Positions 2 to 11,957 of a stretch of 12,739 nucleotides of DNA are shown here, piece by piece. A program made the position numbers and the translations under genes. Origin of the DNA: a virus (taxonomy: Duplodnaviria > Heunggongvirae > Uroviricota > Caudoviricetes); the IMG/VR virus record IMGVR_UViG_3300032038_000051, positions 1 to 12,739 of that record; one strand, given 5' to 3'. Below the pieces are notes generated by a model. That model did not search any database and was not told the DNA's origin. It saw nothing but the letters and a program-made list of their open reading frames with translations. The stretch's first letter is position 1. The number at the start of each line of letters is the position of its first letter.

Positions 2-262
2 CCGCTCTACATAGGCTTCCACGGCGGGCTCATGTACGGCACCAACGTCGGCGGCTCCACCACCGCGGGCGCCTGCGACGGGCACTACACGAACAAGCTC
101 GCGACCACCGGGGACAGGGAATGGCTTTCCTCGGGCGTCCTGTGGGGCTCCCGCAACGCCGGCCCTGCCTACGTCTACGGCGACTACGGGCTGGGCTCGG
201 GGAACTGGAGCATCTGGTCGCGGCTCTCTGGGGCTGGTCGGGGATTCGGGGGTGAATCGTAG
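2..262 (+). CDS. DGR target protein, C-terminal part (5'-truncated by window); probable CLec-fold receptor-binding/tail protein
   Basis: Frame 2 is open from the window edge (PLYIGFHGGLMYGTNVGGSTTAGACDGHY...REWLSSGVLWGSRNAGPAYVYGDYGLGSGNWSIWSRLSG...ES*). The last ~45 codons hold the VR. Tail-protein function is inferred from its position upstream of the lysis genes. Confidence 0.85.
   Translation, partial: PLYIGFHGGLMYGTNVGGSTTAGACDGHYTNKLATTGDREWLSSGVLWGSRNAGPAYVYGDYGLGSGNWSIWSRLSGAGRGFGGES
121..231 (+). repeat. DGR variable repeat (VR)
   Basis: Ungapped 111-nt match to 354-464 (offset 233). 14 mismatches (126,127,137,138,143,146,147,176,182,185,197,210,225,226), every one opposite an A in TR. 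Confidence 0.97.
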
Positions 263-274
263 CGAAGCGGAGAG

Positions 275-292
275 AGGGGGCGTAAGCCCCCT
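275..292 (+). other. DGR target-recognition hairpin/cruciform downstream of VR
   Basis: AGGGGGC-GTAA-GCCCCCT: perfect 7-bp GC-rich stem with 4-nt loop, 12 nt after the target stop codon, where DGR cruciforms usually lie. Confidence 0.8.
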
Positions 293-353
293 TGGTCCTC
301 CAAGGAACATACAACCGACGAAACTATCACTTTGGGGATTCGTGACGAGACCG

Positions 354-464
354 ATGGCAATCCTCGGGCAACCTGAGGAACTCCCGCAACGCCGGCCCTG
401 CCTACGTCAACGGCAACAACGGGCTGGGCACGGGGAACTGGAACATCTGGTCGCGGCAATCTGG
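354..464 (+). ncRNA. DGR template repeat (TR), part of the DGR RNA
   Basis: AAC-rich copy of the VR with 25 adenines. In the target frame the A-containing codons are 8 AAC, 2 CAA, AGG, TAC, ACG and ATC. Lies between target gene and RT. Confidence 0.97.
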
Positions 465-623
465 TTTGGCAATCTCAAGAGCACGACCGTCACGACTACC
501 TCGCGCGCGCCAGAGCGCGACGGGGCATGCCCGCTTAACCAAGCGAAATGGCCTCAAGACCACCGGGCTAGTAAGCGCATGCGGAAAACTCGGAAGGCAA
601 ACCAGAGATTGGGTCCATGGTCA

Positions 624-1673
624 ATGAAAACCTACCTAAGGAACTACGAGGTGTCCCGCACGGACGTCTGGGCGGCGCTTGCCGCGTGGAGGTCCGGCGA
701 GTCGGGGCACAAGAACGGCCACAGGGTGGCCGAGGAGTACGGCACCGACGCCGCGCTCGTCGAGGAGATATACGAGGAGATGCGTGGCCGCAGGCTGACG
801 TTCAGGCCCATACGCCGCTACAGGCGCATGGAGCCGACCAACGGCAAGGTCCGCACCATAGGCGTCGAGTCGGTCAAGCAGCAGGTCTGCGACTACCTCG
901 TGACGACGCTGCTCGCCGACCTCTACGACGCGAGGCTCGGCTTCTACCAGGTGGCGTCCGTCAGGGACAAGGGGCAGCGCCTCTGTCGCGGGGCGCTCAG
1001 GAGGTGGGTGCGCGAGGGAGGCTACCACGTCAAGCTCGACGTGCGCAAGTGCTACCCGTCCACCCGCAAGGACGTCGCGATGGCCGTGTACACCAAGTAC
1101 GTGGGGAGCGAGGACGTCCTCTACGTCATATCCGCCATCCTCGGGACCTACGGTCGCGGGCTGGAGATAGGGAGCCTCTTCTCGCTGAGGACGATGCAGC
1201 TCGTCCTCTCCTTCGGCTACCACCACGTCGAGTCGCTCCACAAGGAGCGCCGCGGCAGGATGGTCCGCCTCGTGGCCCACCAGATATGGCACATGGACGA
1301 CGTGCTGCTCACCGGCCCGAGCAAGCGCGACCTGAAGATGGCCGTGCGCAGCCTCGAGCGCTACCTGTCGTCGGAGTTCGGGCTGACGCTCAAGCCGTGG
1401 AAGGTCGCCCGCACCTGCGACGCCGAGCCGCTGGACCTCGGCGGCTGGGTCGTGAGGGAGCGCCGGGCGACCATCAGGGGCGCGACGTTCCTGCGCGGCA
1501 TGAGGTCGTTCCGCGACTTCGAGAGGCGACCCACCGTCGGCAAGGCGAGGAGGTGCACGGCCTACTGGGGATGGTTCGCCAACGGCGACAACGGCGGGGT
1601 GATGCACCGCAACCACATGGGCAGCACGTTCGCGCACGCGAGGTCGCTCGTGTCGAGGGCCGAGAGGCCGTAG
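624..1673 (+). CDS. DGR reverse transcriptase (~349 aa)
   Basis: RT motifs GKVRTIGV, YHVKLDVRKCYPS, GLEIGSLFS, WHMDDVLL, GLTLK, LDLGGW. ATG 624 chosen because the extension to 252 runs over the TR. Adjacent to a TR/VR pair. Confidence 0.93.
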   Translation: MKTYLRNYEVSRTDVWAALAAWRSGESGHKNGHRVAEEYGTDAALVEEIYEEMRGRRLTFRPIRRYRRMEPTNGKVRTIGVESVKQQVCDYLVTTLLADLYDARLGFYQVASVRDKGQRLCRGALRRWVREGGYHVKLDVRKCYPSTRKDVAMAVYTKYVGSEDVLYVISAILGTYGRGLEIGSLFSLRTMQLVLSFGYHHVESLHKERRGRMVRLVAHQIWHMDDVLLTGPSKRDLKMAVRSLERYLSSEFGLTLKPWKVARTCDAEPLDLGGWVVRERRATIRGATFLRGMRSFRDFERRPTVGKARRCTAYWGWFANGDNGGVMHRNHMGSTFAHARSLVSRAERP

Positions 1674-6764: not shown

Positions 6765-7001
6765 ATGAGTGCAGTGAATAACAACATCATAGCCGAGAGA
6801 AAGCGCCTTGGAATGTCGCAGGAGGAGCTCGGGAGGATCTTGGGGAGGGACCGTTCCGCCATCAGCAGGATGGAGCGTAACCCGATGTCGCTCACCGGCG
6901 ACATGATAGCGAGGCTATCAGACATCTTCTGCTGCTCGTCCGACTATCTGCTCGGTCTTACCGACGAGAGGGTCCCCAGACACTCGGTTGTGGCTACGTA
7001 A
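6765..7001 (+). CDS. Cro-like XRE-family HTH protein (78 aa)
   Basis: GGAGG RBS at 6756-6760; IIAERKRLGMSQEELGRILGRDRSAISRMERN...LSDIFCCSSDYLLGLTD. Confidence 0.9.
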   Translation: MSAVNNNIIAERKRLGMSQEELGRILGRDRSAISRMERNPMSLTGDMIARLSDIFCCSSDYLLGLTDERVPRHSVVAT

Positions 7002-7084
7002 TGACGCCAAACACCATACCGGGCCTCGCGATGCTCGCCCTAATAGCGATCATGGTCGCGAGCGACAGACACTTTAAGTTTTAG
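7001..7084 (+). CDS. 27-aa hydrophobic peptide MTPNTIPGLAMLALIAIMVASDRHFKF (not in the ORF track)
   Basis: TAATG overlap with the cro stop (translational coupling), one TM-like stretch. CRISPR spacer 8 encodes a near-synonymous homologous segment, supporting coding constraint. Confidence 0.65.
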   Translation: MTPNTIPGLAMLALIAIMVASDRHFKF

Positions 7085-8145: not shown

Positions 8146-8217
8146 GCCCCGTTGGCCCAATGGACAAGGCGCTCGCCTCCTAAGCGAGAGCTCCGGGTTC
8201 GACTCCCGGACGGGGCA
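8146..8217 (+). tRNA. tRNA-Arg(CCU), CCA not fully encoded (ACCT)
   Basis: Acceptor GCCCCGT/ACGGGGC, D loop with TGG, anticodon stem CTCGC/GCGAG with loop CT-CCT-AA (anticodon 8179-8181), T arm CCGGG-TTCGACT-CCCGG. Confidence 0.93.
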
Positions 8218-8278
8218 CCTATGTATACACGGAGCGTCATGCGAGGCATCAGCGCGTCGCGCAAGCCGCTCCGTCATC

Positions 8279-8381
8279 TACCGTGTACCGCACGGGAAGT
8301 CACGCCTGTGGAGTGCTCTCAAGACCCTTCGGGGCAATGCACGACGAAGCAGGAACTCACGCCAGTCGTGGGTGGAGGTCC
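8279..8381 (+). ncRNA. Stand-alone TnpB omegaRNA (reRNA)-like scaffold 1
   Basis: TACCGTG-TACCG-CACGGGAA, ACGCCTGTGGAG (8302-8313), AAGAC, cTTCGg hairpin, GAAGCAGGAA (8346-8355), terminal stem CTCACG/CGTGGG, end GGAGGTCC. Same blocks and order as 10234-10364 and as IS605-group tnpB 3' ends (translated tail ACG...KQE). No tnpB ORF directly upstream. Confidence 0.8.
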
Positions 8382-8403
8382 GCGTATTCGCAGGTAGGGA
8401 AGT

Positions 8404-9036
8404 CTTTCACCCGCGCAAGCGTGGGAAGGTCCCATGTGCAAGCCTTTTTCCGTCACCTCTAGGCCTTTCACCCGCGCAAGCGTGGGAAGGTCCTACGTCG
8501 AAATCATCCACCGTGGCGCGCTGGACTTTCGCCCGCACGAGCGTGGGAAGGTCCGCTATAGCGAGGACGAGCTAAGCCCGGTCGAGCTTTCACCCGCGCA
8601 AGCGTGGGAAGGTCCGTGAGCCGAAAGCACGTCAACGACCTTCTAAGCTTTCACCCGCGCAAGCGTGGGAAGGTCTTAGCAATGGGCAACAACGCGAAAG
8701 AAAAGGCCCTTTCACCCGCGCAAGCGTGGGAAGGTCCACGTTAACGCGGAAGAAGGCCCGAGCCGCGTTCTTTCACCCGCGCAAGCGTGGGAAGGTCCGC
8801 TATAGCGAGGACGAGCTAAGCCCGGTCGAGCTTTCGCCCGCGCGAGCGTGGGAAGGTCCACGATCCACGGACTCGCGATGCTCGCCTTGGTCTTTCGCCC
8901 GCGTGAGTGAGGGAAGGTCCGCATGCCGTCGGCCAGGTCGATGAGGTCGAGCTTTCACCAGCGTGGGCGTGGGAAGGTCCGGGACAGCGTGAAGCGCGAT
9001 CCAAAGGCTTTCGCCCGCACGAGCGTGGGAAGGTCC
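8404..9036 (+). CRISPR. CRISPR array 1: 11 repeats (29 nt, CTTTCACCCGCGCAAGCGTGGGAAGGTCC), 10 spacers, type I-E-like repeat
   Basis: Repeats start at 8404, 8465, 8526, 8587, 8648, 8709, 8770, 8831, 8892, 8952, 9008. Spacers are 32 nt x8, then 31 and 27. 61-nt period. Degeneracy increases rightwards, so the leader is on the left. Confidence 0.97.
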
Positions 9037-9083
9037 TGGGCGTAGAGCGTGTCTACGACGACGACAACTAAAGAAGCGATAAT

Positions 9084-10214
9084 ATGATTAGTAGAGCATA
9101 TAAGTTCAGAATTTACCCGAACAAGACGCAGGCCGAACTCATCGAGGAGACGTTCAGGGCGTGCCGATACGTGTGGAACATCGCACTCGAATGCAAGAAG
9201 GTCGAATGGGATGACAGAGGAAAGAACGTTTCGGCGTACGAGCTGATGAAGCTCCTCACCGGCGTGAAGTCCGTATGCACATGGCTGTACGACGTGCCTA
9301 ACTCGGCCATGCAGCAGTCCATACGAGACCTCGACGTCGCGTTCAAGAACTTCTTCAGGCGAGTCAAGAACGGCGAGAAGCCCGGCTATCCGAAGTTCAA
9401 GAAGGCGGGATGCAGCTTCCAGAGCTACAGGACTCCTGCCGCCGGGAACGCGGTACGCGTCATCGACGACCGTCACGTCAAATTGCCGAAGCTCGGCAAG
9501 GTCAAGTGCCGCATCACGCAGACGCCGCAAGGACATCTGCTGAGCGCCACCGTCAGCAGGACTCCATCTGGAAAGTACTTCTGTTCGATAACGTGCGAGA
9601 ACGTGCCGGAGCCGTACATGGAAGACGGCACCCTCGACGTCATGGGCGTCCGTCTCGGCGTACGCGACCTCATCACGTGCTCGGACGGCGTGAGGGTCGA
9701 GAACCCGAGGGCGCTGTCGAAGTCCGAGAGGAAGCTCAGGCGCGAGCAGCGCAGGCTGAGCCGCAAAAAGAGGGGCTCGGCGAATTACAGGAAGCAGAAG
9801 CAGAAGGTCGCGCTGGTCCACGAGAGGGTCGCCAACCAGAGGAGAGACAACATCCACAAGGCGACCACGAGGATCGTCCGCGACAGCAAGGCGATCGCCG
9901 TGTCGTCCAACGACGTGGCTGGGATGATGCGCTCGAAGAAGTTCTCCAAGGCAGTCGCGGACGCGAGCATGTCGGAGGTCAAGCGGCAGCTGGCGTACAA
10001 GGCGCAGTGGTACGGGCGCGACCTCGTCGAGGTTGACGCGAGCACGGCGTTCGGCAGCACGTGCGGGCGATGCGGCGCGCAAGCGGAGCTCAAGGTCGGC
10101 ACGACTCGCTGGACGTGCCCGAAGTGCGGCGCCCACCACGACTACGCGCTGAACGCGGCAAGGAACATAGCGGCCATCGGCATGGCCGAGATCAGAAGGG
10201 GCGGGCGACCGTAA
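9084..10214 (+). CDS. tnpB: TnpB-family protein, predicted nuclease-dead (TldR-like)
   Basis: AYKFRIYPN HTH start, GYPKFK, LPKLG, ZnF CGRC/CPKC, NAARNI. RuvC-I GVRLG (D>R190), RuvC-II AVSSND (E>S274), RuvC-III HDYALN (D>A355). Confidence 0.92.
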   Translation: MISRAYKFRIYPNKTQAELIEETFRACRYVWNIALECKKVEWDDRGKNVSAYELMKLLTGVKSVCTWLYDVPNSAMQQSIRDLDVAFKNFFRRVKNGEKPGYPKFKKAGCSFQSYRTPAAGNAVRVIDDRHVKLPKLGKVKCRITQTPQGHLLSATVSRTPSGKYFCSITCENVPEPYMEDGTLDVMGVRLGVRDLITCSDGVRVENPRALSKSERKLRREQRRLSRKKRGSANYRKQKQKVALVHERVANQRRDNIHKATTRIVRDSKAIAVSSNDVAGMMRSKKFSKAVADASMSEVKRQLAYKAQWYGRDLVEVDASTAFGSTCGRCGAQAELKVGTTRWTCPKCGAHHDYALNAARNIAAIGMAEIRRGGRP

Positions 10215-10233
10215 GGCCGTCCGACGGCAGCGG

Positions 10234-10364
10234 TACCGCGTGTCACGCGGGAACCGGGAGAAATCCGAACGCCTGTGGAGACTGAGTAAGACCGGGCATC
10301 CCCGGCAATGGTCGCAGAAGCAGGAACCCGCATTCGTGGTGGCGAAAGCAAATGGGATTCGTCC
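10234..10364 (+). ncRNA. omegaRNA-like scaffold 2 downstream of tnpB
   Basis: TACCGCG-TGTCA-CGCGGGAA, ACGCCTGTGGAG (10269-10280), TAAGAC, hairpin CCGGG/CCCGG, GAAGCAGGAA (10317-10326), terminal stem CCCGCATT.../AATGGG, end ATTCGTCC. Usual position 3' of tnpB; out-of-frame NACGD and SQKQE tail remnants. Confidence 0.85.
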
Positions 10365-10395
10365 CGAGTCGACGCAAACGCGCAGGCAGCCTAGT

Positions 10396-10703
10396 GTGTC
10401 ACCCCCACGCATGTGGGATGGCCCCTCCGTGACGAATGCGGATCGCTTGTCCGCATGTGTCACCCCCACGCATGTGGGATGGCCCGCGCTAACGGCGGAG
10501 AGCTTGGAGAGATGTCGCCCGTACGCACGCGGGATGACCCGAGCAGATGAGGATTAACCGCGCGTCGCCCATACGTGTGTGGGATGACCCCAAGATCTGG
10601 AGGATTATGAGTCCTCTGTGCTGCGTCTCTCGTACGAGTGTTGGATGACCCGTCGTGAGTGACGAGGAGGAGAGGCGTCGCCTGCACGCATGTGAGATGA
10701 CCC
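10396..10703 (+). CRISPR. CRISPR-like array 2: 6 degenerate 29-nt repeats (GTGTCACCCCCACGCATGTGGGATGGCCC), 5 spacers
   Basis: Repeats at 10396 and 10457 are identical (61-nt period); degenerate copies at 10512, 10562, 10623 and 10675 all keep GTC at positions 3-5 and the GATGRCCC end. Spacers 32, 26, 21, 32, 23 nt. Confidence 0.85.
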
Positions 10704-10750
10704 CCCACGTCGCACGCCGCGCGCATGCGGCGTGCCCTAAGGAGTACGAA

Positions 10751-11530
10751 ATGTCAAACGAGACCAACCTCTCGACGGTCAACGGAGCGCTCGCCAACCT
10801 CGACGGGTTCCTCGCGTCCATCGACGACGCGAAGAGCGCCGACGACGCGCTGTGGCAGGCGAAGCTGATGGACGAGTTCCTGAGGAAGGCCGACGAGTGC
10901 GGCGAGTACGCGGCCGCCTTCTGCCTTCGCGAGGCCCAGATACTCGTGAGGGCCGCCTCCCTTCCCGACCACCTCGAGGTCAGGAGACGTAAGGGGATGA
11001 TAGCCTGGCTGCGGTCCAAGACGATCGAGCAGGTGCAGGAGATCCTCGACGAGTGCGCGACCGGCGTGCGCATAGGCGTGATAAAGGCGCGCGAGACCAG
11101 GGCGGCGAACGCGCAGGACTGCAGGGACCGCCAGATCGACGAGTTCAAGCGGATAAGCAGCAAGCTCATCGACGAGGTCGGCGCGACCGGACGAACCACG
11201 ATATCCGTCGAGCGCTTCTACGCCGAGTGGCGACTCGCCGAGACGCCTGACAGGCAGACGATGGCCGCGTTCAGGGAGAAGACCAAGAACGACGCGCTCG
11301 GGTTGGGCGCAGTGGGCCTCGGAGACGGCTCCGGCACGTACGCGATACCCGTGAAGTGCGACCGCGAGGACACGAGGCTCTACGTCGAGAACAGGCTGAG
11401 GTCGATGCACCATGACATCGTCTCGCTCACCAAGCATTGCAGGGCGTCGAACTTCGCCGTGGCCCACTGCGCGACCGACGCGCTCAGGGCGGACCTCGAC
11501 GAGCTGGAGGCGCTCAATGACCGAGATTGA
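10751..11530 (+). CDS. Hypothetical phage protein (259 aa)
   Basis: AAGGAG RBS before ATG 10751 (MSNETNLSTV...), strong GC3 bias; no family recognised. Confidence 0.75.
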   Translation: MSNETNLSTVNGALANLDGFLASIDDAKSADDALWQAKLMDEFLRKADECGEYAAAFCLREAQILVRAASLPDHLEVRRRKGMIAWLRSKTIEQVQEILDECATGVRIGVIKARETRAANAQDCRDRQIDEFKRISSKLIDEVGATGRTTISVERFYAEWRLAETPDRQTMAAFREKTKNDALGLGAVGLGDGSGTYAIPVKCDREDTRLYVENRLRSMHHDIVSLTKHCRASNFAVAHCATDALRADLDELEALNDRD

Positions 11531-11957
11531 CGTGAGGGACGTCTACGACGTCGCGCATGGCAGGCAGGTGGACATGGAGTCGCGTCGCGGGGACCCGTTC
11601 AGGTGCGTCGACACGACCGACATGGGGTTCGCCAAGGACGTGTCGCGCAAGCTCATGGACGTCGAGCACTCGCTCGAGAACCTCGTGCAGACGGTACGGT
11701 CAAGCGGCGACTGCGTGAGGTTCGCGTTCGGCGCCGGCAGGCGCACCAGCCACGGGGTCTCGTACGACCTGTGGTCGGTCGCGGCCCTCGTGGCGGCGAT
11801 ATACGACGGCATCGCGAACGGCGAGGACGACAGGTCCGTCTACCTCAAGTCTGACGCTCGCTGCAAGGGCGTCGCCGACGACGCGGTCGTCGCGTCGATG
11901 TCCGGGGCGTACGACGTCGACGCATATGCGCGCGAGTTCGCGCGCAACCTATCGTAG
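11517..11957 (+). CDS. Hypothetical phage protein (146 aa)
   Basis: GGAGG at 11506-11510, ATG 11517 (MTEIDVRDVY...), overlaps the upstream gene end; no family recognised. Confidence 0.7.
   Translation: MTEIDVRDVYDVAHGRQVDMESRRGDPFRCVDTTDMGFAKDVSRKLMDVEHSLENLVQTVRSSGDCVRFAFGAGRRTSHGVSYDLWSVAALVAAIYDGIANGEDDRSVYLKSDARCKGVADDAVVASMSGAYDVDAYAREFARNLS

Follow-up and report, generated by a model that had tools for sequence, protein, structure and literature searches.

A nuclease-dead TnpB homolog joined to omegaRNA-like scaffolds and repeat-spacer arrays in a gut or rumen phage, a candidate array-guided repressor

Natural nuclease-dead RNA-guided binders are known as single-guide TldR proteins and as larger CRISPR effectors (Cas12m, Cas12k and dCas12f); Cas12c is another natural binder. 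The TldRs are TnpB-like nuclease-dead repressors that include fliC-, csrA- and oppF-associated clades (Wiegand et al. 2024, PMC10705468; PMC13622181), and the word “array” is absent from the account in PMC13622181. Cas12m (type V-M) is carried on mobile elements, where it serves in competition between elements (PMC11656645); it is a protein of ~600 aa in which two RuvC residues are still acidic (HDD or NDD; bioRxiv 10.64898/2026.03.26.714355). TranC systems are transposon-CRISPR intermediates, with CauTranC9 as a phage example (bioRxiv 10.64898/2026.03.27.714800). Guide arrays have also been described in viruses in two other settings: Thermus Lalka phages encode Cas12r-CRISPR, whose nuclease is active in interference (bioRxiv 10.64898/2026.04.20.719267), and the mini-CRISPR arrays carried by some viruses depend on Cas effectors of the host and have no omegaRNA scaffold attached (PMC6858448).

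Here, we analyze a locus from a rumen or gut phage that encodes a TnpB homolog, P0001, whose system works, in prediction, like TldR and Cas12m and is built like TranC, and which misses defining features of each. The stretch of DNA analyzed, 12,739 nucleotides and hereafter the window, opens a 78.6-kb IMG/VR virus record of ~70% completeness and makes up its first 12.7 kb. The P0001 gene is flanked on both sides by cassettes, each consisting of a scaffold and a repeat-spacer array; this context is decisive and was absent from the original prediction, which concerned the gene itself. The gene and its diagnostic positions are the following.

9084..10214, plus strand: nuclease-dead TnpB homolog P0001, 376 aa, no stop in the ORF
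9651..9653, plus strand: R190 codon CGT, at the RuvC-I Asp column; Arg in 9/9 dead-clade members
9903..9905, plus strand: S274 codon TCG, at the RuvC-II Glu column; S, G or R across the dead clade
10146..10148, plus strand: A355 codon GCG, at the RuvC-III Asp column; Ala in 9/9 dead-clade members
10062..10127, plus strand: zinc-finger (TNB) region, with C327, C330, C345 and C348 all kept

HMMER aligns P0001 with ISDra2 TnpB (PDB 8bf8/8exa) at an E-value of 1.9e-72 and ~40% identity, with R190 falling on D191 (GVRLG vs GVDVG), S274 on E278 (IAVSSND vs IGTEHLK) and A355 on D361 (HDYALNAA vs HDRDENAA); by sequence, the RuvC D-E-D catalytic triad is absent from P0001. At the same columns of a MAFFT alignment, 116 of the 120 best homologs carry D/E/D, and the remaining four carry R/S(R)/A. 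The architecture and fold of TnpB (N-terminal HTH/WED-REC, RuvC and zinc-finger TNB) are nevertheless present in this catalytically depleted protein: Pfam identifies HTH_OrfB_IS605 (1.8e-15), OrfB_IS605 (1.4e-24) and Cas12f1-like_TNB (2.7e-15), the protein passes the NCBIfam guided_TnpB cut-off of 100 with 299.7 bits and scores 364.7 bits for IS200_TnpB, under the cut-off of 425, and its AlphaFold2 model (mean pLDDT 89) is matched best in Foldseek by the TnpB ternary complexes 8h1j and 8exa (TM 0.83-0.91). The original prediction had assigned R190, S274 and A355 to the D/E/D columns; its positions and codons are exact, and the alignment against ISDra2 TnpB that it proposed as a check agrees with it. 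Its further statements, that CGT and TCG are two substitutions away from the nearest acidic codon and that the open frame, the HTH region and the four zinc cysteines are intact, are likewise borne out.

A profile search of 1.8 billion representatives and a second, word-index search yielded nine dead proteins (P0001, P0003, P0019, P0087, P0121 and P0270-P0273), all of which carry R-[S/G/R]-A at the catalytic columns. The nine form a single clade with 100/100 support inside active D/E/D TnpBs in a maximum-likelihood tree of 94 proteins, which suggests that inactivation happened once and that the clade then diversified to identities as low as 39% (range within the clade, 39-74%, with all frames open). 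Pairwise NG86 dN/dS values inside the clade are 0.19-0.49, and are rough because dS is near saturation for most pairs. Active relatives conserve 113 positions at 90% or more, of which the dead clade keeps 73 (that is, in at least eight of its nine members); only 11 are systematically replaced, and 10 of these fall within RuvC/TNB, from residue 190 to residue 355. Strains in contigs of four gut or bovine-gut runs are 90-99% identical over the gene, and the five strain variants listed within tnpB are all at third positions and synonymous. Megablast of the locus against phages gave no match, and the relatives in viral_contigs had an identity of 45% or less.

The history that would best account for this pattern begins with an ancestor in which the RuvC triad was lost once (D to R, E to S/G/R, D to A), after which the rest of the protein remained under purifying selection for a long time. 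Given that TnpB copies frequently decay, and that D353 and D185 remain close to the former active site, P0001 could instead be a decaying pseudogene or a nuclease still active through other residues. We give this reading the least credence of all those considered, because nine diverged members share the same replacements while their frames stay open and dN/dS stays below 0.5, two of the catalytic positions are always Arg and Ala, and no acidic residue has become newly fixed throughout the clade in the RuvC core; replacement acidic residues had been named in the original prediction as a sign against inactivation. Its preference for domestication as a binding-only protein is strengthened by the single clade, the open frames, the dN/dS values (a comparison it had itself suggested, and which is not neutral), the synonymous variants and the covarying scaffolds described below, and, judged at the level of sequence, decay is refuted by the conservation across the clade.

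Among the representatives of the profile search, we also saw a second, more distant lineage with T/R/K at the RuvC positions (P0149, P0151, P0167, P0215, P0224 and P0265; 408-589 aa). The public gene calls of two dead-clade members, P0087 (L003 3687-3860) and P0271 (L092 33-160), begin within upstream arrays, and the N-terminal extensions of ~58 residues or more that result are therefore false.

The neighborhood of the cassettes comprises a GH25-DUF5648 lysin, a large serine recombinase, a cI-like HTH repressor on the opposite strand and a tRNA-Arg, after which the cassettes follow, and this region is the early region of a temperate phage.

252-1673, plus strand: reverse-transcriptase gene, upstream of the lysin (PHROG 1423, E 8e-36; Pfam RVT_1 below cut-off)
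8146-8219, plus strand: tRNA-Arg(CCT) gene, ~50 nt upstream of scaffold 1

The reverse-transcriptase gene may be part of a diversity-generating retroelement or of a defence element, and the tRNA gene might provide a promoter or a processing site for cassette 1. A promoter and terminator scan of the locus gave nothing informative, and the locus is not listed in any of the public RNA runs searched.

P0001 is the one TnpB homolog in the 78.6-kb record, in which no Cas1, CasE or Y1 transposase was found; as the record is incomplete, cas genes may lie in the part that it does not cover. A single copy, no Y1 transposase and an array at the position expected for the right end and single guide set the locus apart from a mobile insertion sequence. 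In this it resembles TldR, with which it shares an origin from IS200/IS605-type TnpB, the loss of RuvC residues, the lack of mobility and a guide-RNA scaffold beside the gene; one TldR clade is likewise prophage-borne. P0001 is, as in TldR, a TnpB homolog with inactivated RuvC that is under selection as a single, non-mobile copy, and by analogy its likely action would be guide-dependent steric repression. TldR, however, has a single, fixed guide that is directed at the conserved promoter of a host gene linked to it, whereas in the P0001 locus scaffolds are joined to strain-variable multi-spacer arrays, and P0001 keeps its zinc finger and full length and belongs to a separate lineage among active phage TnpBs. 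No linked copy of fliC, csrA or oppF was found near P0001. The two cassettes are composed as follows.

8272..8403, plus strand: omegaRNA-like scaffold 1, ~130 nt, with a P1 hairpin, a core at 8302-8355, its own terminal hairpin and tail, and a GCAGGTAGGGAAGT linker
8404..9068, plus strand: array 1, 11 repeats of 29 nt with the consensus CTTTCACCCGCGCAAGCGTGGGAAGGTCC, 61-nt period, spacers of 27-32 nt
10215..10395, plus strand: omegaRNA-like scaffold 2, ~180 nt, beginning at the tnpB stop codon, with a core at 10269-10326
10396..10736, plus strand: array 2, six degenerating repeats, the first two GTGTCACCCCCACGCATGTGGGATGGCCC, with periods of 61, 55, 50, 61 and 52 nt

Scaffolds 1 and 2 are homologous to each other and share a core of the form ACGCCTGTGGAG...GAAGCAGGAA. 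The same core lies directly 3' of the stop codon in many distant active phage tnpB genes, and the flanking elements are therefore omegaRNA scaffolds; an omegaRNA scaffold is thus present at the 3' end of the tnpB gene itself (scaffold 2, supported by covariation). Across 30 aligned sequences (scaffold 1 and 29 others), compensatory changes occur at 18/18 consensus pairs, and Rfam RAGATH-18 matches weakly at 8305-8355 (30.4 bits, under the gathering score). The omegaRNA of canonical relatives terminates in GGGGAGTGTCAAC, followed by a single guide, whereas the array-linked scaffolds run on into repeats. A near-identical strain in run X1 has, at window position 8313, a different apical hairpin in scaffold 1 that is closely like the scaffold sequence of the P0019 phage contig, L002, that is hit by a spacer of the contig L004 (see below), so that scaffold variants appear to circulate among these phages.

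The last unit of array 1 (9037-9068) extends into the tnpB ribosome-binding region, and the gene after array 2 begins at 10751. In array-linked scaffolds, pairing is possible between the segment immediately 3' of GAAGCAGGAA and the 3' half of the repeat. The resulting predicted helix is the counterpart of the terminal stem in a canonical omegaRNA, the repeat taking the place of its 3' strand and tail. This helix is 90% paired, against 18-63% of cells in slid controls, the prediction and the pair count being drawn from one and the same alignment. The scaffold-repeat covariation score is 0.441, compared with 0.324 +/- 0.042 for shuffles, 0/500 of which scored as high; as the scaffolds keep a repeat-like terminal hairpin of their own, part of this co-variation may reflect common descent. 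We used the specific 6-pair helix in place of whole-scaffold duplex energies because the latter separated cognate from non-cognate repeats poorly (mean -29.7 vs -26.6 kcal/mol). Thus, the effector adjoins a CRISPR-like array whose repeat is predicted to pair with an omegaRNA-like scaffold. Scaffolds are found at 9/9 dead loci and repeats were seen at 7/9 on the available, short contigs; all arrays examined begin directly behind an omegaRNA scaffold, in the orientation that TnpB requires.

Two observations concern the internal make-up of the arrays. Spacers 3 (8555-8586) and 7 (8799-8830) of array 1 are identical, which suggests internal duplication of array units. The 5-kb contig L002 (1-5106) contains four scaffold-array modules, whose repeats fall into three families (27-29, 36 and 35 nt), and spacers 2 and 3 of its module b are variants of each other (25/29).

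With its TnpB-sized effector and an omegaRNA split or extended into a scaffold and a CRISPR array, the locus resembles TranC, some of which are phage-encoded and carry phage-targeting spacers. Active sisters of the dead clade (P0004, P0007 and P0014) have a scaffold-array module upstream, in two cases together with a canonical single-guide omegaRNA downstream, and show exactly the published TranC layout. The TranC systems in the papers covered, however, were assayed as nucleases, whereas the dead clade is without all three catalytic residues, and the similarity of LaTranC (PDB 9jfo/9jfq) to P0001 is distant (E 7e-21) and confined to the C-terminal part.

The likeness to Cas12m lies in a type V-like, array-guided effector that, as predicted for P0001, binds and silences without cutting. 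The two differ in size (376 aa in P0001), the best Cas12m chain in PDB matches with an E-value of 1.4e-05 over the C-terminal 115 residues, and a Foldseek TM of 0.43 normalized to the target, together with the nesting of P0001 among IS605-type TnpBs, places the protein outside Cas12m. With Cas12r and the viral mini-arrays, the locus has in common phage guide arrays in mobile-element conflicts and no adaptation genes. The Cas12 hacker (Cas12p) was considered as a relative and set aside as unrelated, being of 500-700 aa and TrxA-dependent. In the literature searched, with the original TranC paper outside it, we came across no account of an effector of TnpB size that is nuclease-dead and has arrays in phages.

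From the two scaffold-array cassettes around a dead TnpB, we conclude that the most likely function of P0001 is to bind the DNA of rival phages and leave it uncut, and we consider it probable that the protein is an array-guided, binding-only repressor for phage-phage competition. The main rival to this explanation is that the arrays are a virus-borne mini-CRISPR for a host type I-E Cascade and Cas3, with the dead TnpB employed elsewhere, for example, using the first guide in cis or helping as an RNA-binder. In favor of this rival, the repeats of many arrays are 28-30 nt long, carry a GC stem-loop and a GGGATGNCC tail and recur with a 61-nt period, the spacers between them being uniform at 32-33 nt; Cas1 was not found in the phage record; and a similar repeat occurs on a Bifidobacterium chromosome. 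The I-E-like repeats and the 61-nt period count against the repressor explanation, because arrays of this kind could serve host Cascade rather than the dead TnpB. We nonetheless regard service to host Cascade as unlikely. Each array examined sits directly behind an omegaRNA scaffold in the TnpB-suited orientation, an association seen at all nine dead loci and in active relatives; repeats of 35-37 nt that are unlike type I-E (two of the three repeat families of L002, in modules b and c, and that of L089) keep the scaffold linkage within the same clade; the 3' half of the repeat co-varies with the 5' strand of the scaffold; and the 5' flank of the lone protospacer is AGC, not AAG.

This protospacer came from a relative's array rather than from the window, and it is the single convincing one in all searches, a scarcity that counts against the repressor explanation: spacer 3 of the array upstream of P0003 (L004) matches scaffold DNA of the P0019 phage (L002) at 30/32 positions, antisense, the 5' side of the protospacer reading ...TTCAGC. 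The spacers of the window itself have no exact target in viral, metagenome or GenBank phage collections. Degenerate and exact patterns of spacers 8, 3/7 and 1, like the array-1 repeat pattern, found nothing in viral_contigs or metagenome_contigs, and array 1, compared with GenBank phages by distant blastn, had no match beyond 27-nt ones at chance level. Within the phage, one site resembles a spacer.

7013..7044, plus strand: site like array-1 spacer 8, in the phage's own 27-aa early ORF (7001-7084); 24/32 identical, 15 contiguous

The two encoded peptides, one from spacer 8 and one from this ORF, are TIPGLAMLAL and TIHGLAMLAL in the order compared, and the nucleotide differences are mostly synonymous, which suggests that spacer 8 was taken from a relative's copy of the 27-aa gene. 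A match of the window's “spacer” 11 to 67903-67934 (24/32) was also considered as a target and set aside as ambiguous.

Spacer content varies by strain, while the flanks and the gene are 90-99% identical. The interior of array 1 is not common to related strains, and one contig joins position 8494 to 8951 via a different 30-nt spacer; in a strain variant of array 2, 10424 is joined to 10681 via 38 other letters. The new spacers of these strain variants had no match among the sequences compared here. Such turnover bears on a further reading, in which the dead protein and scaffold, or the repeat RNAs, would act as an anti-CRISPR decoy that sequesters host crRNAs or Cas proteins. The similarity of the repeats to those of type I-E would fit a decoy, which would resemble phage dead Cas9 with tracrRNA, or RNA anti-CRISPRs; a phage-encoded RuvC-dead Cas9 has been proposed to sequester crRNAs (PMC11656645). 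Real, changing spacers, one of them with a near-perfect target in a rival phage, are however not needed by a decoy, and the repeat type varies widely inside one phage, so that we hold this reading to be very improbable.

Two genes downstream of array 2 are relevant to yet another possibility.

10751-11530, plus strand: downstream gene 1, with homologs at L002 2404-3057 (59%) and L003 6390-6986 (42%)
11412-11957, plus strand: downstream gene 2, with homologs at L002 3053-3556 and L089 2241-2654

Dead Cas12k and dCas12f recruit partners, and the dead TnpB could in a similar manner recruit a nuclease, recombination or replication factor to the guided site, one candidate partner being a product of these two conserved genes. 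Their homologs lie directly 3' of dead-TnpB cassettes (the first in L002 and L003, the second in L002 and L089), and this conservation could reflect a functional partnership or merely a common phage gene order, which is expected in any case because the phages are related. Neither protein matches a Pfam or PHROG family, and the first is without an Atlas look-alike; overall, recruitment seems to us a rather remote prospect.

Returning to the binding-only repressor that we favor, P0001 would probably be loaded with guides transcribed from the two cassettes. If the 3' half and tail of the repeat act as the 3' strand and tail of the canonical omegaRNA terminal stem, each repeat could offer the spacer behind it as a guide, the first unit possibly in cis, and later units either in trans with the scaffold 5' strand or by means of the repeat's own hairpin. 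On related phages that superinfect, the loaded protein would bind DNA that matches its guide and stop transcription or replication with no cleavage, so that prophage immunity would be extended in a programmable way. A uniform spacer length of 32-33 nt and a period of 61 nt suggest that the spacers are acquired by host type I-E Cas1-Cas2. We infer each of these functional steps, from RNA loading, DNA binding and repression to spacer acquisition and a processing of the array that would be free of RuvC. TnpB normally trims its own omegaRNA with RuvC; the dead locus is therefore left without an evident array-processing enzyme, which counts against the repressor explanation.

More tentatively, and with somewhat less than even confidence, we propose that temperate gut and rumen phages run a multiplexed “CRISPR interference”, in which a once-inactivated TnpB and omegaRNA-grafted arrays loaded by host type I-E machinery silence, rather than cut, related superinfecting phages, including the scaffold genes of rivals, and which would be an intermediate between TldR and Cas12m. 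The dead clade would unite both forms of natural binder in a protein of 376 aa with zero catalytic residues and real, changing phage arrays. It suggests a new form of prophage immunity, with rivals silenced via a guide instead of a fixed repressor, and puts a very small natural scaffold on offer for multiplexed gene repression. As active and dead sister lineages exist side by side, the proposed route from TldR to Cas12m and the transition from omegaRNA to CRISPR would become directly testable.

A locus of related appearance was found in a cellular genome. The Bifidobacterium cuniculi chromosome (L098 5170-6679) encodes a 358-aa TnpB-like protein with 28% identity to P0001, which has V and Q at RuvC-I and RuvC-II and is without the zinc finger and RuvC-III. 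In the one genome scan made, its gene adjoins a three-repeat array with a 61-nt period and the repeat end CGTGTGGGATGCCC, and the locus has the look of a truncated dead TnpB of independent origin next to an array of the I-E-like kind.
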